DNA from: Dehalococcoidia bacterium
GTDB taxonomy: Bacteria; Chloroflexota; Dehalococcoidia; SZUA-161; SpSt-899
NCBI GenBank assembly: GCA_041300025.1
Contig: JBGLNL010000001.1
Location: 683,888-747,887 of the forward strand
Length of the DNA stretch: 64,000 nt
Direction of reading: 5' to 3'
Under the pieces are notes generated by a model. It was not told where the DNA came from. It did not search any database and worked only from the letters and a program-made list of their open reading frames with translations. A program made the position numbers and the translations under genes. Below, piece by piece: positions 22,755-49,023 of the stretch. Numbering within the stretch: position 1 is the first letter of the stretch; the number at the start of each line of letters is the position of its first letter.

Positions 22755-22759
22755 GCAAG

Positions 22760-24671: not shown

Positions 24672-25273
24672 TGCGACTTATTTTGGTAAGGCACGGTCAG
24701 ACTGACTGGAACATGGAATATCGGGCTCAGGGACAAAGCGATGTTCCCCTCAATCCGGCTGGCGAAGCGCAGGCTGAAGCAATTGCGCGGGCGCTGAAGG
24801 AAGAGCCGGTTGAAGCCATCTATTCCAGTCCTCTGAGCAGGGCTTACCAGACAGCTCAGGCAATAGGACGGTTCCATCAAGCTAAGATAATAACCGATGA
24901 CAGGTTGAAAGAACTTGATGTGGGAAAGATGGATGGCATGTATTATCCGAACCTTAAAACCAATGCCCCCGACTTTTTCAATATCTGGACCACTGACCCT
25001 GCTTCCGCAAGATGGCCCGGTGGCGAGACTTTGCCGGAACTCCAGCAGCGCATGTGGGATGCTGCCCGAAGCGTCATTTCCGGGGATTACAGCAAATCTG
25101 TGGTTATTGCCAGCCATTTCTTTTCCCTGCTTACTCTGCTTTGCCAGATTCTCGAACTAAGCCTTTCCGAGTTTCGGCGACTCAACCTCAGCGTTGCCAG
25201 CATCAGTGCGGTCGAGTTTGCCGGAGAAAAGGGCAAGCTGGTTTATCTTAACGATACATGCCATCTGGGTTAG
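24671..25273 (+). CDS. Histidine phosphatase family protein (phosphoglycerate-mutase-like)
   Basis: MRLILVRHGQTDWN RHG motif. TGATG overlap with the upstream gene. Confidence 0.8.
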   Translation: MRLILVRHGQTDWNMEYRAQGQSDVPLNPAGEAQAEAIARALKEEPVEAIYSSPLSRAYQTAQAIGRFHQAKIITDDRLKELDVGKMDGMYYPNLKTNAPDFFNIWTTDPASARWPGGETLPELQQRMWDAARSVISGDYSKSVVIASHFFSLLTLLCQILELSLSEFRRLNLSVASISAVEFAGEKGKLVYLNDTCHLG

Positions 25274-25377
25274 CCGGGTTCTGGAACTTGCAAAATCCAG
25301 CTGTTTAAGTTACGCTGTATCCACAAAGAGTAAGTAAAGGATAATGCGAGCTTATCTGTAGCTTTTTGGAAGAACGA

Positions 25378-26544
25378 ATGGCAAAGAGATTAACGCTTTT
25401 CATAATCTGTCTTCTAGTGATGACTGCTTCTCTCTGGGTTGCGGGTTGCGAATTGTTAGGAGGAGAAGATACTGAAGAATCTAATCCTAATAATCAGGAT
25501 TATCAGAGTTTCGATACCTCCACCCCGGAAGGGACGGTAAAAGGGTTTTTGCATGTACTTCCCTCTGGAGATTTGTATGAATGGGATAAATATCTGGTTC
25601 CGAAAGGAAGCTCCAGCGGAGCTTCCGGAGTAGCTAAGGAATTCGCTAAGGAATTTGTGGGAGTTCAAACGGCAGATATCTCAATAGAAATATCAAACAT
25701 AATGTTAGAGGAACTCTGGTCAACCGGTTCAGAAGTGGCAATACGAACTACCTATATTTTGAATAAGAAGGTGAACGGGGAGAAAACCTCTCTACCGCAT
25801 GATTACACTTTCCTGCTGGAAAAATTTGGCGAAGACTGGCTTATAACTGATTGCAGCGATGTTCCTCTGGCACCTCCTGATACTCCTGCTCCCACACCAT
25901 CACCGACTCCGGAATTCGTCGTTCCCGGAACACCTGTTTCTACTGGAACTATCACGCCGGTGGAAGCGGGAGAAATCCTTTTGTACGATGATTTCAGCAG
26001 CCGATCCAATGTATGGCCTATCTATTCAGGTAAATACGGGATTGCCTACTATAATAATGGAACTCTTCGTGTAAAGCATAGGGGAATTTTGCAAAGTCCG
26101 GAAATCTGTGTTGCCCGTCAGTCGTTCGATAATTTTGTGCTCCGGTTGGATACCGCACTGGTTGAAGGCAACGAGGATAGCTGGATAATCGTGGCATTCC
26201 GGACCGACTACTGGGGGAACGGCTACCGCTTTATGATAAGCGCCGATGGTCGCTATGCCATAGATGCATACAATAAAAAAAGTGGGAGTAATTTTTTGCA
26301 GGAGCCCGTCTTTTCCGAACATATCAATGCTGGTTATGATGCGCTGAACCAGCTTCGTATCGAATGTGTAGACGACGCCATCCGTTTCTCCGTCAACGAA
26401 CATCTTTTGAATGCAATGCGCGATAGCACCTTCGTCAGCGGGGCCATCGCGCTGGGGGTCTCAACTACCCCCGAAACTGGCGGCGCGGAAGCCATGTTCG
26501 ATAATTTGATGGTTAATGCACCACTTGGAGAAGTGACCCCGTAA
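25378..26544 (+). CDS. Lipoprotein with a C-terminal concanavalin/DUF1080-like domain, function unknown
   Basis: MAKRLTLFIICLLVMTASLWVAGC lipobox, a P/T linker, and a beta-rich C-terminal half. Confidence 0.5.
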   Translation: MAKRLTLFIICLLVMTASLWVAGCELLGGEDTEESNPNNQDYQSFDTSTPEGTVKGFLHVLPSGDLYEWDKYLVPKGSSSGASGVAKEFAKEFVGVQTADISIEISNIMLEELWSTGSEVAIRTTYILNKKVNGEKTSLPHDYTFLLEKFGEDWLITDCSDVPLAPPDTPAPTPSPTPEFVVPGTPVSTGTITPVEAGEILLYDDFSSRSNVWPIYSGKYGIAYYNNGTLRVKHRGILQSPEICVARQSFDNFVLRLDTALVEGNEDSWIIVAFRTDYWGNGYRFMISADGRYAIDAYNKKSGSNFLQEPVFSEHINAGYDALNQLRIECVDDAIRFSVNEHLLNAMRDSTFVSGAIALGVSTTPETGGAEAMFDNLMVNAPLGEVTP

Positions 26545-26583
26545 AAATAGCCTGATGTTGCTGGTTTGGGGTGTAAAGTAATT

Positions 26584-28107
26584 ATGAAAATCGGACCTGA
26601 CCTCCCCCGGCGAGTTGAGCGCTTCATTACAGAAAACAACCTTTTTAATTCTTCCGGAACTGTGCTGGCGGGTGTTTCCGGTGGCCCCGATTCCGTTTGC
26701 CTGCTGCATATTCTTAATTCCCTGCGCAGTTCACTTGGATTGGATTTGCATGTTGCGCATTTGAATCACCAGTTGCGCGGCGCGGAATCGGATGCCGACG
26801 CGGCCTATGTGGCGGATCTGGCTGAAAAAATGAGCCTTCCCTTTACAATAGAGTCCCGCGATGTAACAGGATATCAGTCAGAACGGGGCTGCTCGCTGGA
26901 AGAAGCCGCCCGCGAGGTTCGTTATGGCTTCTTTGCCGAGATGGCGGAAACGCTTGGCGCCAGCATGGTAGCAGTCGGGCATACCGCCGATGATCAGGCC
27001 GAAACCATCATCATGCATCTGATTCGCGGCACAGGGCTTTCCGGCCTGCAGGGGATGCGCCCGCTTTTCGAGTGGGGATTACCCGGTGGAGGATCACTAA
27101 CCGTGGTTCGGCCTTTGCTGGAGGTAACACGGCAGGAAACCGAACTTTATTGCCATGAACTGGAACTTCACCCGCGTATCGACTTATCTAATCATTCCCC
27201 TGAATACCTGCGCAACCGCATTCGCGCCGAAATCATGCCGCAGCTTGCTGAATATAATCCCAATATCGTCGAGAGCCTTAACCGCATGGCCCGTCTGATC
27301 GGAGAGGACATCGAATATCTGAATAAACAGGTAAGCCGGGTTTTCGATTCCGTGGTCGAAGAAATCCCCGAAGGTGTGTCGCTGGATAGAAAGGCTTTTG
27401 CGGAGCTTCCACCTGCTTTGAAACGGCATCTTTTGCGTACCATGCTTGGGCAGATCATCGGGAGTTTGCGGGATATCGAGATGGTTCACATCGAGACTAT
27501 TATGGAGGCAATGGCGCAACCAGCCGGAAAAGAAATATCCCTGCCCTACGGATTTAACCTGTATGGAGATTACGAAAGGAGCTTTATCACCCGCGGGGAA
27601 AACCCGCTTTTGATCCTGCCTGCTTTTGAAGGCGAAGCGTTTGTTCGGATTCCCGGCGAAACATCGGTTTCCGGATGGAAGGTCAGCGCCGAAGTTTTCC
27701 CCGGCAGGCCAAAAGCGATCAAACAAGGGGATTTCGTGGCCTTCTTCGATATGGACCTTACCGGCGGCGAACTGATCGTTCGATCGCGAAAAGATGGTGA
27801 CCGTTTCCAGCCGCTCGGGATGGACGACTCCAAAAAACTGCAGGATTTCATGGTTGATGCCAAAATCCCTCGCATGTGGAGGGACAACGTGCCTCTGGTT
27901 TGTTCCGGTGATCGCATCATCTGGGTGGTGGGCTGGCGGATCGACCATCTCACCAGAGTGACCCAGGCCTCTCTCGATCCTGCCGATCGTCAAAAGGGAT
28001 ACCCCTGCTTTCCTAGCCAACTCGGATTTGCTGATGAGAAGGCTTTCTCGGACCTGTTTCAACTGGTTGGTTTTCAAAGCCGTTCCTCACGCACTCTAGT
28101 GGAATGA
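26584..28107 (+). CDS. tilS: tRNA(Ile)-lysidine synthase, with a non-native 3' tail
   Basis: PP-loop VSGGPDSVCLL and a TilS_C region ...GDRFQPLGMDDSKKLQDFMVDAKIP...IIWVVGWRI. The last ~45 codons are antisense to an XRE fragment. Confidence 0.85.
   Translation: MKIGPDLPRRVERFITENNLFNSSGTVLAGVSGGPDSVCLLHILNSLRSSLGLDLHVAHLNHQLRGAESDADAAYVADLAEKMSLPFTIESRDVTGYQSERGCSLEEAAREVRYGFFAEMAETLGASMVAVGHTADDQAETIIMHLIRGTGLSGLQGMRPLFEWGLPGGGSLTVVRPLLEVTRQETELYCHELELHPRIDLSNHSPEYLRNRIRAEIMPQLAEYNPNIVESLNRMARLIGEDIEYLNKQVSRVFDSVVEEIPEGVSLDRKAFAELPPALKRHLLRTMLGQIIGSLRDIEMVHIETIMEAMAQPAGKEISLPYGFNLYGDYERSFITRGENPLLILPAFEGEAFVRIPGETSVSGWKVSAEVFPGRPKAIKQGDFVAFFDMDLTGGELIVRSRKDGDRFQPLGMDDSKKLQDFMVDAKIPRMWRDNVPLVCSGDRIIWVVGWRIDHLTRVTQASLDPADRQKGYPCFPSQLGFADEKAFSDLFQLVGFQSRSSRTLVE
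27964..28077 (-). pseudogene. XRE-family HTH repressor, N-terminal ~38-aa fragment
   Basis: MKTNQLKQVRESLLISKSELARKAGVSLLTIGRIERG heads the 297-aa antisense ORF. HTH-like sequence stops where conserved tilS sequence begins. A very AT-rich putative promoter region lies at 28110-28200. Confidence 0.45.
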
Positions 28108-28286
28108 CTGCTTAAAAATAGCATATAATTTTACATATTTTACTATATATGTCAATAAATAAACTTAACTATCGTATTTTATTATAACTACACTATGTTG
28201 AGGTTACGGAAGGCACGTATCCATAAATGTTGTGTGGTGTGGGTGGTGGACTGAAGTGGCAATCAGATGGTCGAAGCTATGAAATG

Positions 28287-28320
28287 AAAAAGGGCTCGCC
28301 GTTTTGGAAGCCCTTTTTTT
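28287..28320. terminator. Bidirectional hairpin terminator abutting the tRNA-Ala 3' fragment
   Basis: aaaaAAGGGCT-12nt-AGCCCTTttttt, with A-runs and T-runs on both sides. Confidence 0.5.
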
Positions 28321-28366
28321 GGTGGAGCTGGACGGGATCGAACCGACGGCCTCATGAATGCCATTC
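28316..28366. repeat. att-type direct repeat, left copy (orphan 3' half of tRNA-Ala)
   Basis: tttttggtggagctggacgggatcgaaccgacggcctcatgaatgccattc is identical to 36395-36445. It covers tRNA positions ~30-76 only. Confidence 0.9.
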
Positions 28367-28484
28367 GGAACTGGCGGTTCTTCTATCTTGTTGGTGTCCC
28401 ATAACTATTTGAAATCAAACGAGGCAGGTGTAGAAAGAAAGTAAACAATAGTACGGGTACCGATACTACCCATTAATATATGTG

Positions 28485-28596
28485 GTAGGAGGGCGATATA
28501 CTTCGATGAGCAACGCTTGATGAAGTAGTAGGGCCAGTAGGAAGGAGTAGTAGGACGGGTATACTATGATACTCGGAGGTAGGAGATCGAAGTAGG
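28485..28596 (+). repeat. Cluster of six same-strand GTAGG(A/G) motifs in a C-poor tract
   Basis: gtaggag, gtagggc, gtaggaa, gtaggac, gtaggag and gtagggt within ~110 bp, flanked by acgggtaccgatact / acgggtatactatgatact. About 120-230 bp inside the left att repeat. Confidence 0.45.
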
Positions 28597-29170
28597 GTAC
28601 TAACACGCAAACTCAGAAAATCGACATTCAAATAGCTGCTAATCACTGAAACGCTGATCCAGACACGACCCCAATCCCAGGGGGCACTAAAACGGGCTTT
28701 TTCCCTATGCATTCAGAGAGTGCACAGAAGTTTCCTGACCTTTATACCTTTAGTCGGAGTTCTTCACTTGTACCGAAAAAAACTCATTCGCGCCGTTCCG
28801 CTGGCCTGGACTCTTGATATAATCGGATCAGGTCATCAAAATTCGGCTTGATCGATTGGAATAAGTTGTTCGGTGGATATAACCCTGAATGGACATTTGT
28901 TATAAATTTGAATGCGTTAGCATATCTGTATCCGACTATTTGTTGACATACAAGAGGCTTTTTCCTATTCTTGACCTGCCAAAAATCGAGCTATTATCAA
29001 ATTCCCCTCTACCTGGCTTGTCAAAAAGCAAGTTCTTGGTGCTCCAATCGAGGCTAGCGAGATCCAGTTGGTTGAAAAGTCAAGCTGGAAAGTTATCCGA
29101 CCGTCAGCAACGGGTTTTGCATCTATGCGGGTAATTGTATGGGTGAAGCGTAAACAGTGAGGCAGCTAGT

Positions 29171-31477
29171 ATGACGTCTATTATTAAGTATTATGAGGGG
29201 ATCGACTCGGTTGCCGTAATCGGCAACTACTTACCCCGCCAGTGCGGTATTGCAACATTCACTACCGATCTTGTTGAGGCCTTATCGGAAGAAGCGCCCG
29301 ACATAAACTGCTGGGCGGTTGCCATCAATGACAAACCCGAGGGATATGCATATCCTGAAAAAGTGCGGTTTGAGATCAACCAGAACAACCTCGCAGATTA
29401 CAGTGTCGCATCGGAGTTTCTCAATATCAGCCAAGTTGATATTGTCTGCGTGCAGCATGAATTCGGTCTTTTCGGCGGCCCTGCCGGCAGCCATCTGCTG
29501 AAACTTCTTGGAGAGATTCGCATGCCGGTCGTGACAACGCTGCATACGGTTCTGAGAGATCCCGCCCCGGAATATCGTGAAGTCATGTGCAAGCTGTCTG
29601 ATCTGTCCGACAAACTGATCGTGATGAGCCGGAAGGCCTTTGATTTCCTCAAAGATATCTATTCCGTTCCGGAGGAGAAAATTGCCTTTATCCATCACGG
29701 CATTCCGGATACGCCTTTTATTGATTCCAGCTTCAACAAAGATAAGTTCGGTGTTGAAGGCAAAAAGGTGCTGCTCACATTCGGACTGCTTTCCCCCAAT
29801 AAGGGCATTGAAAATGTGCTGCGGGCGCTTCCGTCCGTCACCAGAAAACACCCTGATGTTACCTATATTATCCTGGGAGCAACACATCCGCATATTTTGA
29901 AAGCGCATGGCGAGCAATACCGTATCAGCCTACAGCAGCTCGTGCGCAAACTCAATATCAGCGGTCATGTCATTTTTCAAAACCGATTTGTCGAACTGAA
30001 AGAATTATGTGAGTTTCTCGGCATCGCTGATATTTATGTAACCCCCTATCTTGAAGAAGCCCAGATTACTTCCGGGACGCTCGCCTATGCCATGGGAACT
30101 GGCAAAGCCGTCATTTCAACCCCATACTGGTATGCGACCGAGATGCTTGCCGAAGGGCGGGGAAGAATTGTTCCATTCAACAACCCTGATGCCATGGCGG
30201 AACAAATCATCGACCTTTTGGACAACGATGTCACCCGGCATGCGATACGCAAAAAAGCCTATACATTTTGTCGGGAGGCGATCTGGAAGGAGGTATCCCG
30301 AAGATATCTCGAGGTTTTCAGCGAGGTTCAGCATCATCGTTCCCTGCACCCCCGACCCCGACATTTATATGTTGAAAACATCAAATCCATCACAAATTTC
30401 GATCTCCCGGAAATGAAGCTTGATCACATGAAGACCCTTACCGATGATACGGGCATTTTGCAGCATGCCGCCCATATCGTCCCCGATCGCATCCATGGCT
30501 ACTGCACCGATGATAATGCGAGAGCTCTGCTGGTTGCTGCCATGGGCCGGAAATACCTGTCTACGGGCGACAGGTCCCTTGATTCCCTTAGCAGTCATTA
30601 TCTCAGCTTTCTACTGTATGCCTTCAATGTCGAAACCGGGCGATTTCGTAATTTTATGACCTATGCCCGGCAATGGACTGAGGAGGTGGGATCGGAGGAT
30701 GCTCATGGTAGAGCGCTCTGGGGCCTTGGCAAGTCTGTGATGTTTTTTGACAATCCCGGAGAGGTGGCAACGAGCGCGACGCTCTTCAACAAGGCGCTGA
30801 AGGCTGTCGAGCACTTTCATTCGCCCCGAGCCATCGCTTTTGCCCTGGTGGGCATTCATGCCTACCTGGATAAATTTTCAGGCGACAGTGAAGTGCGAAG
30901 GATTCGAGAAATCCTCGCAGATAGGCTTTTCAATCAGTTCAAGAACAATGCATCAAACAGCTGGCCCTGGCTTGAAAGCACTTTAAACTATGCCAACGGC
31001 AAGCTTCCCCATGCCCTGCTCCTATCCGGCCAATCGATGCAGCGCAGCGATATGATCGATATGGGACTCAGATCGCTTGAGTGGCTGCTCACCATCCAGA
31101 CCGAAAAAGGCCACTTTGTGCCGATCGGTAATAAGGGATGGTATGAAAAAGGCGGCCCCAAAGCCCGTTTCGACCAGCAGCCCGTCGATGCTAATGCTAT
31201 GATCGAAGCCTGTATCGAAGCCTTTAACATCATCCGAGACAAAACATGGATAGACAACGCGGTCATGTGCTTTAACTGGTTTCTCGGAGACAACGACCTG
31301 AATATGCCGCTCTATGATCCCAAGACCGGCGGCTGCCGCGACGGGCTGATGGCTGATGGCATCAACCAGAATGAAGGCGCCGAGTCGTGCCTTGCATGGC
31401 TACTTTCGCTTATGACATTGCAAAAGCTTTATGCTGATGAGATTTTGAAACAGCCATCGTCCCAATCAGCCGATTAA
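29171..31477 (+). CDS. Two-domain protein: N-terminal GT4 glycosyltransferase plus a C-terminal ~370-aa six-hairpin-glycosidase-like domain
   Basis: 768 aa with no signal peptide. GT4 pattern in residues ~1-390 (..VTPYLEEAQITSGTLAYAMGTGKAVISTP..). The C-terminal half (HGYCTDDNARALL..HGRALWGLG) looks like an alpha/alpha toroid (weak call). Confidence 0.75.
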   Translation: MTSIIKYYEGIDSVAVIGNYLPRQCGIATFTTDLVEALSEEAPDINCWAVAINDKPEGYAYPEKVRFEINQNNLADYSVASEFLNISQVDIVCVQHEFGLFGGPAGSHLLKLLGEIRMPVVTTLHTVLRDPAPEYREVMCKLSDLSDKLIVMSRKAFDFLKDIYSVPEEKIAFIHHGIPDTPFIDSSFNKDKFGVEGKKVLLTFGLLSPNKGIENVLRALPSVTRKHPDVTYIILGATHPHILKAHGEQYRISLQQLVRKLNISGHVIFQNRFVELKELCEFLGIADIYVTPYLEEAQITSGTLAYAMGTGKAVISTPYWYATEMLAEGRGRIVPFNNPDAMAEQIIDLLDNDVTRHAIRKKAYTFCREAIWKEVSRRYLEVFSEVQHHRSLHPRPRHLYVENIKSITNFDLPEMKLDHMKTLTDDTGILQHAAHIVPDRIHGYCTDDNARALLVAAMGRKYLSTGDRSLDSLSSHYLSFLLYAFNVETGRFRNFMTYARQWTEEVGSEDAHGRALWGLGKSVMFFDNPGEVATSATLFNKALKAVEHFHSPRAIAFALVGIHAYLDKFSGDSEVRRIREILADRLFNQFKNNASNSWPWLESTLNYANGKLPHALLLSGQSMQRSDMIDMGLRSLEWLLTIQTEKGHFVPIGNKGWYEKGGPKARFDQQPVDANAMIEACIEAFNIIRDKTWIDNAVMCFNWFLGDNDLNMPLYDPKTGGCRDGLMADGINQNEGAESCLAWLLSLMTLQKLYADEILKQPSSQSAD

Positions 31478-31491
31478 GTAAAGGATTAGCT

Positions 31492-32541
31492 ATGCGCATT
31501 GCGATGCTCTCGCCGATTGCCTGGCGCACGCCGCCGCGACACTATGGCCCGTGGGAAAGCGTGGTCTCCCTTTTGACCGAGGGGTTGGTATCGCGAGGCT
31601 ATAATGTTACCCTTTTTGCAACCGGTGATTCGGAAACAAGCGGCAAGCTGCATACCATTTGTGCGCGGGGCTATGAAGAAGACCGCTCCATTATTCCAAA
31701 AGTATGGGAGTGCCTGCACATTTCGGAACTCTTTGAGCATGCTCAAGATTTTGATATTATACATAACAATTTTGATTATTTGCCCTTGACCTATACCGGC
31801 CTTATCACCACCCCGGTCGTTACAACCATTCACGGCTTTTCATCGCCGGGCATTTTGCCGGTTTACAAAAAATATAACCGCAAAGTGTTCTATGTTTCCA
31901 TTAGCGATGCCGACCGGTCCCCGGATCTTGACTATATCAAAACCATCCATCACGGCATAGATATAAAGCAGTTTGATTTTCAGCCTGAACCGGAGGATTA
32001 TCTGCTTTTTTTCGGGCGCATCCACCATGACAAGGGTGCCAGAGAGGCCCTTGAAATTGCCAGGGCCTGCAATAAGAAGCTGATATTGGCGGGAATCATC
32101 CAGGATGAAGTCTACTATCACCAGTACGTCGAACCGCACCTGGACAACCATAATGCGGTCTATGTCGGCAGCGTCGGGCCGGTTCAGCGCAACCAGTTGC
32201 TAGGCAAGGCATACGCGCTTTTGCATCCCATAAATTTTAATGAGCCTTTCGGACTGTCTATTATAGAGTCCATGGCTTGCGGTACCCCGGCGATCGCGTT
32301 TAACAAGGGGAGTATGCCAGAGTTGATCGAGCATGGCAAAAACGGCTTCCTGGTTTCGGGTTGCGAAGAGGCTGTTGAACATGTGGCAAGGATAAAAAAT
32401 ATAAATAGATTAGACTGTCGTCAGACGGTCGAAGCCCGCTTCACCGTAGACAGTATGGTCGAAAAATATGTAGACGTTTACACAGAGGTGCATGAAAAAG
32501 GACATAAGGATTTTGCTGACAGCCAAGCCAACAAAAATTGA
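31492..32541 (+). CDS. GT4 family glycosyltransferase
   Basis: MRIAMLSPIAWRTPP...PFGLSIIESMACGTPAIAFNKGSMPELIEHGKNGFLV is the canonical GT4 E-x7-E region. Confidence 0.85.
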   Translation: MRIAMLSPIAWRTPPRHYGPWESVVSLLTEGLVSRGYNVTLFATGDSETSGKLHTICARGYEEDRSIIPKVWECLHISELFEHAQDFDIIHNNFDYLPLTYTGLITTPVVTTIHGFSSPGILPVYKKYNRKVFYVSISDADRSPDLDYIKTIHHGIDIKQFDFQPEPEDYLLFFGRIHHDKGAREALEIARACNKKLILAGIIQDEVYYHQYVEPHLDNHNAVYVGSVGPVQRNQLLGKAYALLHPINFNEPFGLSIIESMACGTPAIAFNKGSMPELIEHGKNGFLVSGCEEAVEHVARIKNINRLDCRQTVEARFTVDSMVEKYVDVYTEVHEKGHKDFADSQANKN

Positions 32542-32550
32542 ACATCGATA

Positions 32551-33510
32551 ATGACAGGGTTGCATGGTATGAATAGAAAAACCCCTTTTATAAAGCGATA
32601 TGACGGGAACCCCATCCTTACCCGGGATGACGTGCCCTATCCGGTAGCCACTGTCCACAATGCCGGGGTTATTAAACACAATGACCGGTATATAATGCTT
32701 TTCAGGTCGCACAGACACAACGGTCGCTGTGTAATCGGCCGGGCTGAAAGCGCAGACGGTTTTTCCTTCACGGTCCATCCCGAACCCTTCCTTGAACCGG
32801 CGACAGACAACGTTTTTGGGGAATATGAGGAGTTCGGAGTCGAGGACCTCCGCATAAACCCCGTGGAGGGCGAATATCTTCTTACCTACAGCGCATACTC
32901 GCGGCATGGAGTGCGCATCGCACTTGCCCGGACAAAGGACCTCAAAAGCATTGAGCGCGTCGCGCTGATCACCCAGTCCGACCTTCGCAATGTGGTTATT
33001 TTCCCTGTGAAATTCCAGGGCAGATACGCGCGCCTGGACCGGCCGCATTCCGAAATGTCACCCTGGTCTATCTGGATTTCCTATTCCCCCGACCTTGTTC
33101 ACTGGGGCGATTCACGGGTGATTATGAAGCCGGTTCCCTATCACTGGGATGAAATGAAAATCGGGCCCGGCGCACCGCCCTTCAAAACCGACAAGGGCTG
33201 GCTTCATATTTACCATGGAGTCTTTAAAACGATGGCTGGGGCGGTGTATCGCCTTGGCGCGGCCCTGCACAACCTTAATGATCCGGCAAAAATCATCGGC
33301 GTTTCTGATCAGTGGATACTGCAGCCCGAGGATGCCTGGGAAGTGAGCGGCTACGTGCCCAATGTTGTTTTTACATGCGGCGCTGTTCCTGAAGACGACG
33401 GTACGGTAAAAATATACTGGGGCGGCGCTGATACCGTCATGTGCGCCGGCACGGCGGTAATTGATGATCTGGTACAGCTTTGTCTGTCGGCTTCCCGGCC
33501 GCCACTGTAG
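32551..33510 (+). CDS. GH130 family protein (beta-mannoside phosphorylase/hydrolase-like, DUF377)
   Basis: ...NPILTRDDVPYPVATVHNAGVIKHNDRYIMLFR...PNVVFTCGAV..DGTVKIYWGGADTVMC matches the GH130 five-bladed propeller pattern. No signal peptide. Confidence 0.85.
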   Translation: MTGLHGMNRKTPFIKRYDGNPILTRDDVPYPVATVHNAGVIKHNDRYIMLFRSHRHNGRCVIGRAESADGFSFTVHPEPFLEPATDNVFGEYEEFGVEDLRINPVEGEYLLTYSAYSRHGVRIALARTKDLKSIERVALITQSDLRNVVIFPVKFQGRYARLDRPHSEMSPWSIWISYSPDLVHWGDSRVIMKPVPYHWDEMKIGPGAPPFKTDKGWLHIYHGVFKTMAGAVYRLGAALHNLNDPAKIIGVSDQWILQPEDAWEVSGYVPNVVFTCGAVPEDDGTVKIYWGGADTVMCAGTAVIDDLVQLCLSASRPPL

Positions 33511-33677
33511 CTTATTATCAAATATCACAACGGGCTTATTGCAAATCAGGAAATCAATAATTTCATAAACTGATCGAAATGACTTTTAGAGGATATGCTG
33601 GGATTGAAAGTCCCCCTGCTAAACAGACTTTCGATGCAGAGCACACAATATCAAACTACCTTTAAGGATACAGTGAT

Positions 33678-35156
33678 ATGGACGCAAAAAAGTATCTAAA
33701 CCCGAAAGTTAAAAGGATAAAGACAACCATTCTGGGGGACACCTCACGCGTTATAACACGCCTTCATATTCCCAACGGGGCGCATCGCATACTTAAAATC
33801 ATTCAACGCATAATAGATTTGCCTGAGGAGACAGCCGAAAAGCTTCTTTCACAAATAATGTTTGATTTTTCAAAGCGGCACAAAGACATCAGACGCATTT
33901 TTGAGCGTCACCTAAATGAGGTAAAAGATTATGTTCCTCGGGACGCCGTGCTAAGTGAGACCAAAATGGCTCTCATCGGGGCCTATTTTACCATGGAGTA
34001 CTCCGTTGAATCGGCTGCCCTTTTTAACCCTTCAATTGTCCTCCACCCTGATCAAAGCCATCTGGACAAAGGCAGCTTGCGTTTTATCATGAGCCTGCGG
34101 GCAATCGGCGAAGGCCATGTTTCCTCCCTTGTATTTCGAAGTGGCGTCCTTGACGAGCACAATACGTTTATCTTCGACCCGGTCAGCGATTATATCGAAA
34201 GGCCGGACGTCCGCCCAAATCCGATTTACGACCGGCATTTGTTCCAGCTGAAGCTCAACGAAATGGGGGCCTGCAATGAGGTAACAGCTCATCTTCTTGG
34301 CCAGTTACCAGATGATTTCAGCTATAATGAATTAAAAGAAAAAATTGGAGCGCTTCGTGCAAAAACCGTTTTCTCTGAGGAGCGCCAAAACGGAACTTTC
34401 GAGATCATTTACTGGCTTGCCAACTCCAATTATGAGATGAATTTCCGACCCGATCACCGAATATCCGAACGGGTTATCTTTCCCGTTTCGAAAAACGAAA
34501 GCAGAGGCATTGAAGACGCCCGGTTCGTGCAATTTTTTGATGACACCGGCGAAGTGACCTATTATGCGACCTATACGGCTTATAACGGCCTTAGAATCCT
34601 GCCGCAGCTGATAGAAACAAAAGATTTTACCAGATTTAAAATTATAACCCTCAACGGCAAAGCAGTAAAAAACAAGGGCATGGCTCTTTTTCCCCGCAAA
34701 ATTGACGGCAGCTACGTTATGCTTTCCCGACAGGACGGTGAAAATAATCATATCATGTTCTCAGACAATATCCATTTCTGGCAGGAGTCCAAAATCATCC
34801 AGGAGCCCACACGTCCCTGGGAATTTATTCAGATCGGCAACTGCGGCTCACCCCTGGAAACCGATCAAGGCTGGATCGTACTCACCCACGGTGTCGGGCC
34901 GATGCGTCAGTATTGCATCGGCGCCATGCTACTTGATCTTGAAAATCCGGGAAAAATCATTGCCCGCCTGGAAGAGCCGTTACTTACCCCGCATGAGGAA
35001 GAGCGCGACGGGTATGTTCCCAATGTCGTTTATACCTGCGGCGCAATTTTTCATAATACCGACCTCGTCATTCCCTATGGCATATCTGATATTAAATCCG
35101 GCATTGCAACCGTTGGAGTGAGGGAATTAATTAACTGCATGCACGCGGTAGGTTAA
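33678..35156 (+). CDS. Long GH130-like protein with a ~250-aa N-terminal extension of unknown function
   Basis: The C-terminal half (EDARFVQF...YATYTAYNG...GYVPNVVYTCGAI..LVIPYGISD) is GH130-like. I do not recognise the N-terminal half. Confidence 0.75.
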   Translation: MDAKKYLNPKVKRIKTTILGDTSRVITRLHIPNGAHRILKIIQRIIDLPEETAEKLLSQIMFDFSKRHKDIRRIFERHLNEVKDYVPRDAVLSETKMALIGAYFTMEYSVESAALFNPSIVLHPDQSHLDKGSLRFIMSLRAIGEGHVSSLVFRSGVLDEHNTFIFDPVSDYIERPDVRPNPIYDRHLFQLKLNEMGACNEVTAHLLGQLPDDFSYNELKEKIGALRAKTVFSEERQNGTFEIIYWLANSNYEMNFRPDHRISERVIFPVSKNESRGIEDARFVQFFDDTGEVTYYATYTAYNGLRILPQLIETKDFTRFKIITLNGKAVKNKGMALFPRKIDGSYVMLSRQDGENNHIMFSDNIHFWQESKIIQEPTRPWEFIQIGNCGSPLETDQGWIVLTHGVGPMRQYCIGAMLLDLENPGKIIARLEEPLLTPHEEERDGYVPNVVYTCGAIFHNTDLVIPYGISDIKSGIATVGVRELINCMHAVG

Positions 35157-35339
35157 TGGTTCCAGGATCGGCGTTTATGAAGCCCATCTGATAGCTTTTT
35201 TTATATTACTTTATAGAAACCATTTTTCACCGAGAGATGTGAATTTGGAATTTTCCATCTCATTCAATACTGTGATACCTGCTATTGATGTGAGCTCTAG
35301 TGGGAGTTCAGATATAGACAGGGTCTGTGAAGAGGAAGC

Positions 35340-35500
35340 TGGTCTTCAGAGCGATAAACCCTGAAATCTGCGCCCACAACATCCGGCACACGGGTTTTTC
35401 ATGGACTTTCGACCGAGGGCTTCCCAGTACTTCAATCTATGGAGGTCCCAAACTTTCAAGCTTGCAGTTGCTAATCGATCGTTTGCAACACCACAGAACA
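35340..35500 (+). pseudogene. Tyrosine recombinase C-terminal fragment (box II region)
   Basis: ICAHNIRHTGFSWTFDRGLP....GGPKLSSLQLLIDRLQHH resembles H-x-L-R-H-T...LGHSSLQTTxRYxH. There is no upstream catalytic core. Confidence 0.4.
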
Positions 35501-35529
35501 AGGGCTGAGGGGAGAAGTCGTGCCCAAGA

Positions 35530-36364
35530 ATGCCCAAATGCGCCAAAAGGGGTATCCGTAAGGACGCCCAAGGCCCAGCTAGTCTTCATCGCGGTCGCTC
35601 CTAAAATCATCCCCCTCAGGATATGTCCCCACGGACTCCTCGTACTTTCTTGCCTTCCTCGTCTCGTCTATGGAATGAGGCGTGTCTATTTGCGTCGGGA
35701 TAGATGCCCCTTGCGCTATTGTGACAGGCTACGCCTGCTGGAAAGGGAGTTCGGAGACAGGCACCTCTGTGAGATCTCTCAAAAGGAGATCCTTGAACAC
35801 CGAAACAGGGTCGCCTCGGAGACTTCAAATCTCACCTCCAACAGAATTTTCATTCTCAAGCAAATTTTCAAGCAGGGAATGGAAATGAACGCGATCAAGA
35901 ACGATCCGGTTGCTGCCATGTCATACCTCAGTGAGAAGAAGCATGTCAGGAACGAGTTCCTCATGCCTCCGGAATCGGATCACCTACTTGAGGCGTGCCA
36001 GAAACTGCGATCAAGAGATTTGTTACCGGCGGCGATCTGTCTGGGAGCTGAACATGGAGCTTCGAAGCAGGAAATCCTGGATCTGAAATGGACCGACATC
36101 GATTTCGAGTTCGAGGGGAGCGCCCGCATCAAAGCCTCGGATATCTTACCCCGGCTGAGGTCCACTATGCTCACTGAGAATCCATATTCAAGGCAATGGG
36201 CATCCACCTTATTTTTCCAATTTTGTGGTCTTGACAATGGGGTCAACCTCAAGGATCTCGCCAGGTTCTATGCGAACTCGAAAGAAACGAAAGAATCTAG
36301 TAAGCTATACAGAAGCCACACAGAGGTCAAAAAGGGGTCTCTGAACAGAAAAAGAGCCGATTAG
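35530..36364 (+). pseudogene. Tyrosine integrase, frameshifted and internally degraded
   Basis: ATG 35530 gives MPKCAKRGIRKDAQG (typical integrase N-terminus), then a stop at 35602. A second frame continues with SAM-like-domain sequence and LDLKWTDIDFE (box I region, Arg lost). The C-terminus is degenerate. It ends 35 nt from the tRNA-Ala 3' end. Confidence 0.6.
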
Positions 36365-36394
36365 GGGTTGCCTAACCCGCTCTTTTTCTTGATC

Positions 36395-36445
36395 TTTTTG
36401 GTGGAGCTGGACGGGATCGAACCGACGGCCTCATGAATGCCATTC
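36395..36445. repeat. att-type direct repeat, right copy (inside intact tRNA-Ala)
   Basis: Identical to 28316-28366. Confidence 0.9.
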
Positions 36446-36474
36446 ATGCGCTCTCCCAACTGAGCTACAGCCCC
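36399..36474 (-). tRNA. tRNA-Ala(GGC), CCA encoded
   Basis: The reverse complement is GGGGCTGTAGCTCAGTTGGGAGAGCGCATGAATGGCATTCATGAGGCCGTCGGTTCGATCCCGTCCAGCTCCACCA. It has the G3:U70 identity pair and anticodon loop AU-GGC-AU. Confidence 0.95.
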
Positions 36475-36475
36475 C

Positions 36476-36581
36476 CGCAGAGCGCCATCTGCTGTATGTA
36501 GCTTGCACTCGTGCGCGGGATCATCTTCTCGTAACCGGCGTTGAGCCAGCATCAGAGTTCCTGGACGATCTGGATAGATAG
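36476..36581 (+). pseudogene. UvrD/PcrA-like superfamily-1 helicase, C-terminal ~33-aa remnant
   Basis: The frame reads ..ERHLLYVACTRARDHLLVTGVEPASEFLDDLDR*, the helicase motif VI/terminal region. The 5' side is cut off at the tRNA. Confidence 0.5.
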
Positions 36582-36596
36582 GTGCTAAGGGGAAAT

Positions 36597-37370
36597 ATGT
36601 ACAAACTCGCAATTGATAAACTGACGTTTGTGAATAATTTACTGGAATGGTATAATAAGTCTCTTTCTAATCCCAATTCGAAAGTGCTGCCGCATCCCGA
36701 GTATGGTCGCTGGAAGAAGTGGAGCGATGACCGTATTTGGTGTTCTGTATTTTTCAGCATCGGAGTCAAAGGAGGGTCAAGAGCGGCACGGGATTATTTG
36801 GAGTCAATCGAAAAAGGATTGGAAGAATTTGAATTACCGATTGCCAGTCTTACCCCGCTTGAGTTTGGTGATAGAATGCGGAAAATATGGCGATTTGGAC
36901 GTGGATACAATCGTTCAGGAAAGGCGCTGGGGAGATTCTTTAGCAAAGATGAGAATTTCGGAAGAAAAAATAGCTTTGAAAAAAGCATAGCTGAATCTTT
37001 TGGAGTATTAGAAAAACACGGTTTTGCGAAATGGTTTCGGGAAATTTCCGAGTATAATGACGATCGTAAAAAAGCTCATTTCATGGAAGAATTGCCGGGT
37101 GTAGGTCTTAAAGTTTCCCGTGATTTCTTGAATGATATTGGGATGACGAATTCACTAATTGCCCTGGATATTCATGTTCTCGCCGAAATGAGAGACACTT
37201 GGAAATGGGCCGTACCGCCGACTACGCCCAATGATAGAACGATCTATGAAGCGATTGAAGATGGCGTCAGGGCAGTTGCAGAGTCAATTGGAGTGACAGT
37301 TCTTGAAATTGATAAGGCAATATACTTTTCGCGCATGACTGCTGAATTCAGACTAAATAGAAATGACTAA
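36597..37370 (+). CDS. HhH DNA-glycosylase-like protein (archaeal OGG / OGG-fold family)
   Basis: ELPGVGLKVSRDFLNDIGMTNSLIALDIHV resembles the Ogg2-type helix-hairpin-helix block (GIGxKxASxFLRxxG...AIxDxHI). The rest is unrecognised. Confidence 0.55.
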   Translation: MYKLAIDKLTFVNNLLEWYNKSLSNPNSKVLPHPEYGRWKKWSDDRIWCSVFFSIGVKGGSRAARDYLESIEKGLEEFELPIASLTPLEFGDRMRKIWRFGRGYNRSGKALGRFFSKDENFGRKNSFEKSIAESFGVLEKHGFAKWFREISEYNDDRKKAHFMEELPGVGLKVSRDFLNDIGMTNSLIALDIHVLAEMRDTWKWAVPPTTPNDRTIYEAIEDGVRAVAESIGVTVLEIDKAIYFSRMTAEFRLNRND

Positions 37371-37694
37371 ATCAGTATGGGTGTTTCATATTTGTGACCA
37401 TCCTGTGTCCACACCCCGCCAAAAGAGGCGGAAACAGATACAACCAGACAAAAGAATACAAAAACAAAATTTTATCCTTAATTCTTGAGTGTCAACGTAA
37501 TACGCTGGTATGCAATGGCTTGAGGGTAATGTGGTCGGAGAATCCCAGCGCCTCCGCTTTATTGCGCACCGAACTTTATTATCATTTCATTATCGACAAT
37601 TATTCATTTTCTTCTCAAAGTCTAATTTCAAACTGACTCGCAGCCATTCAATATAAGTCATTGCAAAAAACTGAAATTCAACATATTTTTTAAT

Positions 37695-39125
37695 ATGGGC
37701 AGAACGATATTAGACGTTGACCCGCTGATACTTAGAGACCGCCTGCATGCGCTCTTCTTGTGCAGCCAATCGGTTATGAATGTAGCGGTCGAAATGCTTC
37801 TGAAAAGTCACCGGTTCAAAATCAAATTGGAAATAGCTGGCGCAACCAATCCGGGCTATTCACTCTTTATAAAAATAGCCAATAAGTTGAAAGTTGATTA
37901 CATTACTCCGGAAATTCCAGAAGAATTAAGGCCTTTTCCATTGAAATGGATATCAGATAAAAGTACCGCAAATTTAAGAACCTGGATACCGGAGATGAAA
38001 GATAGAGAGGGAGATTATCATATTCTCCTCCCTTTCTATTTACGATATCATCTCGATAAACTGCGGGAACGAGAACCCAATTTCCCCATGCCACAAATCG
38101 ATAACTTGTATTTATTATCCCGCTGGGAAGAATGTTTTGTATACCAGGTTCCATTATCAATAACGGCATTAAAGGATCTTCTTTCCTATGAAAGATTCCC
38201 ATATCTTTCAATCCCATCACCCCTTTTCAGTTTTATCGGGACAGGTTTTGTGGAGCAGCGACTTTTTCGATTGGACGATCTTTCGCAATTATATCTTGGT
38301 TTTTGCAGCGGGCCAGAAAAATGGAACCTTGTCAACGGGGTTGAAATAGAGAAGCACCCCTACAACATGGCATTGAGAAATAAACTCAGTGCGATGACCT
38401 TGCGATCAGGAAATCGCAGGACACCCTCATATCCGGTATTGGTGCGGCATTTTACTTGGGATTTGGAGCAGCTGGGCTTGATTATTGAAAATGCTTCCGT
38501 TCTAAACATGATAAATAAGCATTTGCCGAAGGAAAGAGCGGACAGAATCAGAAACTGCCTTTTATTTAGATTACGTGGCTTATCAGAAGATGAAATCAAA
38601 GGTGAATTGGGTTTTGGGAATCAGGAAGAATACTATGAATGGCAAGTCGCTAACAGGATCAATATCATCTCTAAAGATTACCGTGATCCGTATGATGCCT
38701 GGCAGAATGCCTGTGAGTTTTTTGAAATTGAACCAAATATCGAAATACTGGACAATGTTCAAATCTCGGCAGCTACAAAAGATGAACCGAACGCAAGTGA
38801 TTCCGGGCCGACCGGGATTCAACTCCCTCCGATTACAATCGCCAGGCACTCAGACGGTTTTGCTTCAATCGTAACATCTAATGGCAAATCTATATCATTA
38901 ACCGGGAAACAAGCTCATTTAATATCCAAACTTCACGAAGCATATGTTAACGGCACACCCGAGCTATTACAGGCTCGTTTTATAAACGAAATTTATGGTG
39001 AGGTAAAAGAAAACCGGCTCCAGAAGCTTTTCGGGAACAACGACGCTTGGAACGAGCTTATTGAAAAAGGAAGAAGAAAGGGTCTTATACGTTTGAAAGC
39101 CATAAAACCCGATAATTCGGATTAA
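37695..39125 (+). CDS. Hypothetical 476-aa protein with a possible sigma-70 region-4/LuxR-like HTH
   Basis: The long ORF looks coding by eye. ADRIRNCLLFRLRGLSEDEIKGELGF is HTH-like. No catalytic motif recognised. Confidence 0.5.
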   Translation: MGRTILDVDPLILRDRLHALFLCSQSVMNVAVEMLLKSHRFKIKLEIAGATNPGYSLFIKIANKLKVDYITPEIPEELRPFPLKWISDKSTANLRTWIPEMKDREGDYHILLPFYLRYHLDKLREREPNFPMPQIDNLYLLSRWEECFVYQVPLSITALKDLLSYERFPYLSIPSPLFSFIGTGFVEQRLFRLDDLSQLYLGFCSGPEKWNLVNGVEIEKHPYNMALRNKLSAMTLRSGNRRTPSYPVLVRHFTWDLEQLGLIIENASVLNMINKHLPKERADRIRNCLLFRLRGLSEDEIKGELGFGNQEEYYEWQVANRINIISKDYRDPYDAWQNACEFFEIEPNIEILDNVQISAATKDEPNASDSGPTGIQLPPITIARHSDGFASIVTSNGKSISLTGKQAHLISKLHEAYVNGTPELLQARFINEIYGEVKENRLQKLFGNNDAWNELIEKGRRKGLIRLKAIKPDNSD

Positions 39126-39248
39126 TCTTAAAATTTCTGTGGGTGACAGCAATTCACCCAGAAAACTCCCCCAAAAAAACGTCGATTTCGCCTAACCACC
39201 CAGGTATACACCCACGTAGCTCCCCACTTGGTGTATTAGTCTCCTTGC

Positions 39249-39506
39249 ATGAAAAAGGGACGATTATTAGATGATCGTTTAAGGCGCAGTAATAATGGCG
39301 AGCAAGCTATTTCATCCCCTAATTGCGCCGGATTGGAACATCAAGCTGTGAAGGAGCCCTCATCGCCGGGGGATAATTTCACATTTAAAACCATTGAACT
39401 CGCCCCGCTGGACGACCAAACACTCGATCTTGAGAACTGGTTAGCCGGTCTTTTTGTCGAATATTGGCTGTCAAAAGGGCGAGCAAGTCAAAAGGAGATA
39501 GAATAA
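39249..39506 (+). CDS. Hypothetical 85-aa protein
   Basis: The ORF abuts the next gene (stop TAA 39504-39506, ATG 39507). No motif recognised. Confidence 0.35.
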   Translation: MKKGRLLDDRLRRSNNGEQAISSPNCAGLEHQAVKEPSSPGDNFTFKTIELAPLDDQTLDLENWLAGLFVEYWLSKGRASQKEIE

Positions 39507-39740
39507 ATGAACGCAGAAGTCTATAAAACATCTGACATCGCGTTGGCGGCTTATTTGTCGATGCAGGGATTTTCTATACGGGGGGTGGCATTTAATGGCG
39601 ACCGAAGATCTGTCTTTCAGTTCGAAGATGAACCGGGTTGCCAGGAACATGTCCTGAGATTTTTCAACCGCAATACAATGGTTGAACCAATCGCTTTTCT
39701 TGACCATGTCAAGAGCCTGAAGGCGATGATTAAGCAGTAA
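39507..39740 (+). CDS. DUF5659 domain protein
   Basis: YKTSDIALAAYLSMQGFSI...DRRSVFQFED......F....MVEP..F...VKSLKAMI matches the DUF5659 pattern common in phages and mobile elements. Confidence 0.6.
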   Translation: MNAEVYKTSDIALAAYLSMQGFSIRGVAFNGDRRSVFQFEDEPGCQEHVLRFFNRNTMVEPIAFLDHVKSLKAMIKQ

Positions 39741-39779
39741 ATAATAATCTGATGAGATGTGATGATATGAAAATTCGGT

Positions 39780-40526
39780 ATGAAAACAAGTGATAAAATT
39801 GTCGGGGGACTGGGAGCATCTTCGGAGCTGTCCAAAAAGCTACATCACCCGGGACCGGATATCAGGCCATGTGTGGCACAGATGCTTGAATCCTCATATA
39901 CAAAGGGGGATTATCCCAATCGGAATGCCGCGGCTCATATAATCGCTTGTGAACTTAGGCGAATCGGGTGTTCTCATGATGAGGTCCTGCAGCGAATAAT
40001 AGCATGGAATGATGGAAATACCGCGCCATTAAGTATATCTGAATATTCCAAGGCGGTTCGCAGTGCATTTGCCAAAGACTATAATTATTCCTGTTATCAT
40101 CATTTCTTAGAACCGACTTGCATTGGACCCGACGCATGTCCGTTTTCATCAAGAGTTAAATCGAATCAGAAATATTATAACAATAGAAAATTCATTCGAT
40201 ACCGCTGGCCAGAATTACTTCCTAATGTAGCCATATTGATATACTACATAGCATTAATTGAGCTCGAAAGAATACGGCAGGTCGGGGCAGGGGGAATGAT
40301 ATACGCCAGTTATCGGGAGATCGCCAAATTATGCGGGGTAAATCCCGGATCAATTATGAGAAATCTGGCTATACTGCAAAGCCATGGCCTGATTGAATTG
40401 AAAATTGGAACCCCGCGAAAGTGGGAGAGAAGCGCAACCGAGATAAGGCGCGTTATTCCCATTCCGAGACCATCACAGAATTTATTGAGGAAACTATATG
40501 ATGAAAAACCATACACAGAAAAGTAA
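39780..40526 (+). CDS. PriCT-like domain plus winged-HTH protein (putative replication/regulatory protein)
   Basis: NRNAAAHIIACELRRIGCSHDEVLQRIIAWNDGNTAPLSISEYSKAVRSAFAKDYNYSC resembles primase C-terminal (PriCT) domains. C-terminal YREIAKLCGVNPGSIMRNLAILQSHGLIE is wHTH-like. Confidence 0.45.
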   Translation: MKTSDKIVGGLGASSELSKKLHHPGPDIRPCVAQMLESSYTKGDYPNRNAAAHIIACELRRIGCSHDEVLQRIIAWNDGNTAPLSISEYSKAVRSAFAKDYNYSCYHHFLEPTCIGPDACPFSSRVKSNQKYYNNRKFIRYRWPELLPNVAILIYYIALIELERIRQVGAGGMIYASYREIAKLCGVNPGSIMRNLAILQSHGLIELKIGTPRKWERSATEIRRVIPIPRPSQNLLRKLYDEKPYTEK

Positions 40527-40582
40527 GTTTTCCACACACATTAAGACAGTATCCAATATTTATATAAAGGGGATTATTTCTT

Positions 40583-41098: not shown

Positions 41099-41288
41099 TT
41101 TGAGGGATTAAAATGATGTTGAAATTCATTAGGCATATTCACCTGGTAAATTATCCGCCAGCGAGTGACAACAATTGCCATTTAGGATTCGCTCGTAAGG
41201 CACCATCCGATAGAATGTTATCGAATAAACGTATCACCAGGGAATTGGTGATAACCCTATTGATTTCGAATTGTATAGCAGGGGGTAT

Positions 41289-43870: not shown

Positions 43871-43875
43871 ATTAA

Positions 43876-49013: not shown

Positions 49014-49023
49014 GAGACATAAC

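Follow-up and report, generated by a model that had tools for sequence, protein, structure and literature searches.

What placed two identical parts of a tRNA-Ala(GGC) gene about 8 kb apart, and in which genome did this happen? The pair lies in a 64,000-nt stretch of contig JBGLNL010000001.1 (GenBank assembly GCA_041300025.1, a Dehalococcoidia bacterium), which is hereafter called the window and to which all coordinates refer. A first-pass annotation, made from the sequence alone, had interpreted the pair as the footprint (attL and attR) of a tyrosine-integrase element inserted into the 3' half of the tRNA gene, and this interpretation has held up, as relatives of the integrase remnant lie at the same distance from the same tRNA gene in other loci. 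We consider it probable that the repeats are the two junctions of a decayed integrative island and that they were carried in on imported DNA. The island itself is one more tRNA-borne island of the ordinary kind; a point of wider interest is that an attachment (att) footprint need not record an event in the genome now carrying it. An apparently imported tRNA gene together with its island matters for island-calling methods and for the integrase host ranges that are deduced from metagenome-assembled genomes (MAGs).

The repeat pair and the tRNA-Ala(GGC) gene

A repeat search returned the two copies, at 28316–28366 and 36395–36445, as a direct repeat of 51 nt with 100% identity (51 of 51 positions, as had been claimed) and a spacing of 8079 nt. 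No other long repeat was detected in the intervals searched (27–38 kb and 26–48 kb), and the chance expectation for a perfect 51-mer in ~11 kb is effectively zero. The right copy lies within a complete minus-strand tRNA-Ala(GGC) gene (36399–36474), which was identified by ARAGORN and matched over its full length by the Rfam tRNA model (61.5 bits, E 1e-11); direct reading gives the G3:U70 pair and an encoded CCA, in agreement with the first-pass annotation. The repeat covers tRNA positions 30–76 and 4 nt past the CCA. The left copy had been described as carrying only positions ~30–76, and nothing more of a tRNA was found there: neither ARAGORN nor an Rfam E-value search of 27500–37500 returned a second tRNA, and for the left copy taken together with its upstream sequence, the predicted fold was not better than those of shuffled sequences (z +0.67). 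These results rule out a second complete tRNA gene at the left copy.

Hairpin-forming sequences adjoin both copies. The left one (28287–28320; −16.1 kcal/mol, z −3.8) is followed by UUUUU on the tRNA strand, and the right one (36347–36389; −26.4 kcal/mol, z −5.4) separates the tRNA gene from an open reading frame (ORF; 35327–36364) that stops 34 nt short of the tRNA 3' end. The arm next to the left copy (28367–28600) contains purine-rich GTAGTAGG repeats, and its first ~90 nt are similar to the arm found in L085 (described below), a locus in which another island occupies this site. Repeated GTAGG/AGTAGTAGG motifs occur in the purine-rich part of this arm (28480–28600), i.e. two exact 9-mers 22 nt apart, for which the expectation is 0.12; these motifs may be arm-type integrase binding sites.

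The integrase remnant and its family

The ORF beside the tRNA gene gave weak, sub-threshold, collinear integrase matches in Pfam and a PHROG integrase match with an E of 3e-13. A database search with the C-terminal part of the remnant returned 85 homologues, the best intact ones being 375–401 aa in length and carrying the Pfam Phage_integrase domain. When the closest intact protein (P0002, 400 aa; retrieved proteins and loci are given as P and L numbers, respectively) was aligned with the window by tblastn, residues 100–239 were found to be kept at 35717–36133 (93% identity) and residues 364–400 at 36251–36361 (81% identity), followed by a stop codon. In between, an unrelated filler of 117 nt (36134–36250) stands in place of residues 240–363 and thus of HxxR and the catalytic tyrosine, and no counterpart of residues 1–99, or of the HTH_17 excisionase-like gene that lies upstream of an intact integrase gene in L108, was found in the island. 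Both kept parts align with the L108 integrase gene by blastn at 96.2 and 91.7% nucleotide identity without a frameshift, indicating that the gene was killed by deletions rather than by long decay. Judged from this homology, the remnant clearly belongs by origin to a tyrosine integrase family, and the earlier description of a dead integrase remnant 35 nt from the tRNA gene stands, the ORF ending 34 nt away with its catalytic core gone.

In L001–L004, L086, and L108, a homologue of this family ends 34–35 nt from a minus-strand tRNA-Ala(GGC) gene, with the same hairpin in between, and the tRNA genes are identical to that of the window or differ by one base. Distal att copies were not found in the L001–L003 loci within the 10 kb at hand, IMG/VR yielded no exact att match and only integrase matches of 23–30% identity, and no second integrase of the same family is present in the window. 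In the intact family members P0002–P0009, GAEHGASKQEIL stands at the usual place of the first catalytic arginine (TGxRxxEL; cf. window 36050–36075), and HDLRHTF and the C-terminal RYxH are retained. The L108 contig (1462–1514) breaks off precisely where the identity block has its inner end (...GCCATTC); this end and the start of the L087 contig (see below) would fit branches of an assembly graph, i.e. alternative configurations coexisting in those samples.

Empty and alternatively occupied sites

A search of metagenomes for the exact junction pattern gave a single hit, L085, and the XRE-type protein encoded there led to ten loci. L085 has the same left flank as the window, including an intact 63-aa XRE gene, and carries a different island past the tRNA fragment. 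In L115, L116, and L118, the site is empty: the XRE gene and the same hairpin are followed by one complete tRNA-Ala(GGC) gene, a 97-nt spacer carrying two consensus promoters, and a divergent tRNA-Leu(CAA) gene. The same arrangement is seen in L117 and L123 as far as their contigs extend. Relatives with a single tRNA-Ala gene at an unoccupied site, for which the first-pass annotation had suggested a search, were therefore found in full in three loci and in part in two. In all five of these loci, the hairpin is joined directly to one complete tRNA gene, which supports the claim that the displaced left copy is still attached to the original terminator. In another locus, L003 (4240–13747), the tRNA-Leu(CAA) gene that adjoins tRNA-Ala is followed by a separate integrase of 447 aa together with a type I restriction-modification system, indicating that both tRNA genes of the divergent pair serve as island targets.

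Three further islands were found at the tRNA-Ala site (L119, which equals L122; L120; and L124), and thus at least five different occupants share one site: that of the window and L087, and those of L085, L119/L122, L120, and L124. The identity blocks of the five occupants end at tRNA position 32, 30 or 29, from which we infer that the crossover lies in the anticodon loop of tRNA-Ala. Anticodon-loop crossover is reportedly among the sublocation classes of integration into tRNA genes (tDNAs) distinguished by Williams in 2002. Taken together, both junctions, the empty site, the five occupants, and the intact relative of the integrase make this a precisely mapped example, from which a new family of integrases specific for tRNA-Ala(GGC) can be defined in uncultured anaerobes.

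Other copies of the island and their divergence

The island of the window also occurs in other assemblies. L087 corresponds to window 27976–36060 at 99.56% identity with a 125-nt indel at 35492, parts of the island are present in L088–L092 at 99.5–99.7%, and L086 corresponds to 35492–36477 at 98.6%, with the same integrase deletions in the native Ala–Leu context. L086 and L087 are 99.67% identical where they overlap. Since the left junction with the island (L087) and the remnant with the tRNA gene (L086) were recovered in independent metagenome assemblies, the repeat structure is not an assembly artefact. All copies found share the same junction, and neither a circular junction nor a second insertion context of the island was seen among them.

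The copies diverge least in the left flank (0.3%), somewhat more in the island (~0.45%), and most in the integrase pseudogene (1.4%). At 0.4–1.4%, less than one change is expected in 51 bp, and a perfect pair is what would be expected. The first-pass annotation had attributed the perfection of the repeats to either a recent insertion or protection by tRNA function; low divergence suffices, and protection is not needed, the left copy having no tRNA function. Relative to the sequences of L087 and L086, 125 nt are missing from the window at 35492, as is a GCC codon at 35847 in the integrase remnant, and decay of the non-cargo part of the island is continuing.

A probably imported 8.5-kb segment

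The backbone of the window is of Dehalococcoidia type. Its TilS is 78 and 76% identical to those of two MAGs of that class, with which the genes at 21363–27963 are syntenic, and this synteny ends at tilS. In Dehalococcoidia that are more distant (L007, L009, and L018), the core genes found to the right of the block (47943–49608) neighbour tilS. Of 80 related tilS loci fetched from GTDB genomes, 56 were scanned for tRNAs, and tRNA-Ala(GGC) was present in none of these, indicating that the tRNA locus is not native here. The TilS proteins of sister strains, which differ at one or a few amino acids, are 474 aa long and end with ...RVTDFTQRTLRLEFEME. In the window, the last 13 codons of tilS have been swapped for 33 codons running antisense through a truncated XRE gene, resulting in a fused TilS of 507 aa, and the native 3' end was not found elsewhere in the window.

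XRE-type loci match the window exactly from 27964, and only over 27964–28366 and 36389–36477; beyond the island and its tRNA gene, the donor-type match is limited to 352 nt on the side of the displaced fragment and 3 nt on the side of the tRNA gene. The match to all of these loci stops 3 nt upstream of the tRNA gene (36477), so that the native TTGACA-17-TATTAT promoter is missing, and no promoter-like (sigma-70-like) site was found within ~500 nt upstream of tRNA-Ala on its strand. The imported tRNA-Ala(GGC) gene may be silent. At NCBI, the names attached to the XRE protein and to four of its neighbours in L115 are Deltaproteobacteria or Desulfobacteraceae; those of XRE homologues that are more distant are Desulfobacterota, Desulfatiglandales, and Geobacter. 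Encoded CCA was considered as a marker of origin and proved uninformative (9 of 21 tRNAs in Dehalococcoidia loci vs 14 of 15 in donor-type loci). On these comparisons, the tRNA gene, its terminator, and the island appear to lie on an 8.5-kb segment (27964–36477) that is foreign to the Dehalococcoidia backbone and derived from a different phylum. In L086, this island, its integrase dead in the same way, is found in the native Ala–Leu context, which suggests that the element both inserted and decayed in a lineage of Desulfobacterota type and was moved only afterwards.

Proposed history and alternative explanations

In the history that we propose, a tyrosine integrase would have recombined the att site of an element with the anticodon loop of tRNA-Ala(GGC) in a Desulfobacterota-type lineage, where this gene lay between the XRE gene and the divergent tRNA-Leu(CAA). 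The element would have brought its own copy of tRNA positions ~30–76, by which the gene was regenerated beside the integrase gene, while the original 3' part was displaced by 8 kb, still joined to its own terminator. Autonomy would have been lost in the same lineage, with the excisionase gene and integrase residues 1–99 gone and the catalytic core (240–363) replaced. A later event would have set 27964–36477, a segment that begins halfway through the XRE gene and ends 3 nt beyond the 5' end of the tRNA gene, beside a serine-recombinase element, replacing the 3' end of tilS.

Several points weigh against this history. The position and the direction of the crossover are both read from the ends of identity blocks, and the donor taxonomy consists of names on MAG proteins, which can be mis-binned. 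No repeat and no recognisable recombinase site was found at the left or the right breakpoint. L087 starts at 27976, 12 nt inside the left junction, which fits a graph branch and proves nothing. The function of the cargo is deduced from family membership only, and the cassette that makes up this cargo may be either the original load of the element or a later arrival. The possibility of a misassembly, discussed below, counts on the same side.

The island might not be dead. It could be mobilizable in cis and be excised when a related intact integrase and excisionase, such as those of L108, are present in the same cell. Both identity blocks are without a mismatch, and the island has kept its distal arm as well as the 140 nt next to the integrase end. 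Samples of the same kinds contain intact integrases with 93% identity in the kept part, at least five islands use the site, and such behaviour is documented for cis-mobilizable elements (CIMEs) in streptococci (PMC5704250). However, every copy lies in the same junction, with no sign of a circular form or of a second context, and the window has no other integrase of the family; we regard continuing mobility as doubtful, while giving it some weight.

A misassembly, in which either the 8.5-kb segment or the whole of 27964–43.9 kb would be DNA of a co-occurring Desulfobacterota-type organism joined to a Dehalococcoidia contig, is unlikely. Many organisms share an identical tRNA-Ala gene, through which assemblies could be bridged at 36399–36477, a donor-type organism with a 99.5% identical island is present in metagenomes, and the independent contig L087 begins 12 nt from the left junction. 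That junction, however, has no shared sequence that an assembler could use (microhomology of 1–2 nt at most), core genes from either side of the block neighbour tilS in the more distant L007, L009, and L018, and the window contains no Ns. The fused 507-aa TilS and all other window genes tested, cargo included, lie on one NCBI contig of 1.77 Mb (1,771,430 bp).

It is also unlikely that the element integrated in place, into a tRNA-Ala(GGC) gene of the Dehalococcoidia genome itself, and that the differences from related genomes reflect ordinary local plasticity. In favour of this reading, Dehalococcoides is documented to have an island hot spot at tRNA-Ala, marked by 3' fragments in repeated copies, truncated recombinases, and inversions (PMC2764846), and the GC content of the island (0.485) equals that of the backbone (0.49). 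Against it, the DNA flanking the att sites gives way, after 352 nt on the left side and 3 nt on the right, to a truncated tilS and a serine-recombinase element, respectively, sister strains with near-identical TilS keep the native 3' end, and none of the 56 scanned tilS loci has the tRNA gene. The same island with the same integrase deletions occurs elsewhere in the XRE/tRNA-Leu context, and the tRNA gene of the window lacks the promoter that is present at every other locus. Transfer of an already decayed island accounts for these features and is preferred. Local duplication or chance, for which nothing speaks except the bare existence of the repeat, has virtually no probability given that a perfect 51-mer lies in the exact register of the tRNA 3' part with an integrase remnant at the family-typical distance, and it is already refuted by the empty and alternatively occupied alleles of the same site. 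The positions of all features are summarized in Table 1.

Table 1. Features of the island, its junctions, and the adjoining DNA (window positions; ".", no strand assigned)
Position	Strand	Feature	Evidence or remark
26584–28107	+	tilS with replaced 3' end; native to nt 27963 (...RIDHLTRVT), then 33 foreign codons	Pfam ATP_bind_3, TilS, TilS_C
27964–28077	-	XRE-type HTH (helix-turn-helix) gene, 5' fragment of 38 codons cut at the tilS junction; left end of the putatively imported segment	Intact 63-aa gene in L085, L115–L124
28128–28155	-	XRE promoter-like site (TTGACA, 16 nt, TAAAAT)	11/12 matches; conserved in L085, L115
28287–28320	.	Native bidirectional terminator hairpin of tRNA-Ala, donor chromosome side	Fold; empty sites join hairpin directly to complete tRNA
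28316–28366	-	Displaced tRNA-Ala fragment (positions 30–76 + 4 nt), distal att junction	Repeat search, locus alignment
28367–28600	.	Island-specific arm	Cassette homology begins only at 28601 or 28994
28601–35284	+	Glycan cassette, four genes	blastn vs L109–L114
28943–28971	+	Promoter-like site of cassette	
29076–29192	+	Structured leader of cassette	
29171–31477	+	768-aa GT4 glycosyltransferase with C-terminal extension	Pfam Glyco_transf_4, Glycos_transf_1
31492–32541	+	349-aa GT4 glycosyltransferase	Pfam, NCBIfam
32551–33510	+	319-aa GH130 protein, nearest to beta-1,2-mannoside phosphorylases	Pfam E 6e-55, NCBIfam
33678–35156	+	492-aa protein: C-terminal GH130 domain, N-terminal 250 aa without family match	Pfam, NCBIfam
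35285–35714	.	Sequence between cassette and integrase remnant, in place of xis and integrase residues 1–99	Lacks 125 nt at 35492 vs L087, L086
35715–36364	+	Tyrosine integrase remnant	tblastn with P0002, blastn, PHROG
36347–36389	.	Element-borne bidirectional terminator hairpin, integrase/tRNA interval	Fold; conserved in L001–L004, L086, L108
36395–36445	-	Identity block within regenerated tRNA, proximal att junction	Repeat search, direct reading
36399–36474	-	tRNA-Ala(GGC), complete	Identical gene in L001, L003, L004, L086, empty sites
42098/42140–43837		Large serine recombinase, 565–579 aa	Last 52 nt overlap tRNA-Leu(CAA) 3' end
43786–43871		tRNA-Leu(CAA), no encoded CCA	Overlapped by end of recombinase gene

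Comparison with known systems

The tDNA-island principle is the basis of Islander (PMC4383910), and the window island shares with islands of that type an intact tRNA gene at one end, a displaced direct 3' fragment at the other, an integrase gene beside the regenerated tRNA, an identity block running from the anticodon stem-loop to past the 3' end, and both empty and alternatively occupied alleles, including an unoccupied target in relatives. Unlike in those islands, the integrase gene beside the att site is a remnant lacking HxxR and the tyrosine, no excisionase gene is present, and the tRNA gene with both junctions appears to lie outside its original chromosome. Islander, which requires an integrase gene, would probably filter out this island.

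CIMEs were defined in streptococci as cis-mobilizable elements derived from decayed integrative and conjugative elements (ICEs) or integrative and mobilizable elements (IMEs) (PMC5704250). The window island formally fits this definition at the sequence level, as its integration functions have been lost (the integrase gene is gutted and xis is absent) and attL and attR have been retained, with arms that are conserved relative to L085 and L108. Unlike the streptococcal CIMEs, it contains no conjugation or mobilization genes, belongs to a different phylum, and gives no sign that its ancestor was an ICE or IME; streptococcal CIMEs undergo accretion with an incoming element, whereas no tandem partner of the island is present in the window.

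The tRNA-Ala islands in the high-plasticity regions of Dehalococcoides mccartyi (McMurdie et al. 2009, PMC2764846) come from the same host class and likewise feature tRNA-Ala as a hot spot with 3' fragments, truncated recombinases, and inversions. Native plasticity islands of this kind occupy the host's own tRNA-Ala gene within conserved synteny, whereas the tRNA-Ala locus of the window has Desulfobacterota-type flanks, is absent from the related Dehalococcoidia tilS loci, and carries a glycan module instead of reductive dehalogenase genes. A prophage was ruled out, as PHROGs matches in the island are confined to the integrase and glycosyltransferases and the integrase family shows at most 29% identity to proteins in IMG/VR.

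The serine-recombinase element to the right

The DNA to the right of the putatively imported segment (36478–43.8 kb) is a second mobile element with a low GC content (0.42). The genes at 36478–43871 are those of an Ogg-like HhH protein, an uncharacterized 476-aa protein, a PriCT_1/HTH protein, and a large serine recombinase, the last of which runs into tRNA-Leu(CAA). This tRNA-Leu(CAA) is ~80% identical to the donor-type neighbour of tRNA-Ala, with compensated stem changes. A simple inversion, which would have explained a tRNA-Leu gene located 7.3 kb off on the other strand, was ruled out, the tRNA-Leu being a different gene. According to the Islander paper (PMC4383910), only tyrosine recombinases were known to target tRNA genes, and for this reason a serine-recombinase element that ends in a tRNA gene deserves a look. 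Nothing decisive was found in the literature on serine recombinases targeting tRNA genes, and neither the serine recombinase nor the tRNA-Leu segment had a viral match.

As a tentative suggestion, and one that we think possible rather than probable, the serine-recombinase element may have taken up the adjacent 8.5 kb of a Desulfobacterota-type chromosome by aberrant excision and delivered it to a Dehalococcoidia genome, replacing the end of tilS. This would be a cross-phylum transfer resembling specialized transduction, in which one mobile element carried the target gene and the remains of another, and the passenger island with its intact att sites could then be reactivated in trans. Beyond the element, a PilM-like gene at 43969 was suspected from Pfam coordinates of being truncated; this was dropped, the L018 homologue aligning from residue 1.

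The glycan cassette

The cassette occupies 6.3–6.7 kb of the 8.0-kb island. In a PDB sequence search, the closest matches of the 319-aa GH130 protein were TM1225, 1,2-beta-oligomannan phosphorylase, and Lin0857, the C-terminal half of the 492-aa protein matched the same GH130 enzymes, and the N-terminal half of the 768-aa protein resembled PimA-type mannosyltransferases. From these family assignments, the cassette is probably involved in beta-1,2-mannoside synthesis and phosphorolysis. The similarity of the 319-aa protein to characterized GH130 systems (Lin0857, Teth514 enzymes, TM1225, and 1,2-beta-oligomannan phosphorylase; PDB 5b0p, 7fip, 1vkd, and 9fj8) extends over its full length with E values of 1e-47 to 1e-57. 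Unlike those systems, the window has two GH130 genes in one operon with two GT4 genes, one of which encodes the 768-aa protein with an uncharacterized C-terminal half. Searches of the island with Pfam, NCBIfam, and PHROGs revealed no transfer or phage genes.

Homologues of the 768-aa protein number in the thousands; the top 120 are 83–99% identical to it, and identity is 83–97% in MAGs named Desulfobacterales, Zixibacteria, KSB1, Latescibacterota, and Caldithrix. The cassette is 95–97% identical at the nucleotide level in the unrelated contexts of L109–L114, with a common right end (...GATACCTGCT), e.g. 96.4% between window 28994–35283 and L109 and ~95% between 28601–35285 and L113, in which one gene has been replaced and the flanks have a GC content of 0.52–0.56 vs 0.49 for the cassette. 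Judged from these alignments, the cassette is a module with a horizontal history of its own that is nested in the shell of the tRNA-Ala element. The first-pass annotation had held that the island reading would fall if relatives carried the 8-kb segment without the repeats. What recurs elsewhere is the cassette, and both the island arm and the integrase end lie outside it; the recurrence touches on that condition and does not refute the island.

The cargo polymorphisms comprise 18 synonymous and 23 non-synonymous changes over 5.8 kb, with no frameshift in seven assemblies. The ratio of non-synonymous to synonymous rates (dN/dS) is roughly 0.4, which suggests that the cargo is intact and under mild purifying selection. 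The GT4–GT4–GH130–GH130 cassette is a very successful, horizontally spreading module that deserves biochemical study.

Two minor observations concern the cassette and its surroundings. Past the cassette in L113 (16473–17800) lie another tyrosine-recombinase-like gene, encoding 274 aa and different from that of the window, and a fragment that looks like the 3' half of a further tRNA (TGGTGCGGGAGGTCGGAATCGAACC...); the cassette thus appears to have travelled in tRNA-associated islands more than once. The leader of the 768-aa gene in the window (29076–29192) matches positions 1–92 of the Rfam model group-II-D1D4-6 with 43.4 bits (gathering threshold 49) and an E of 8e-10, and could be either a group II intron fragment or an unrelated structured leader.

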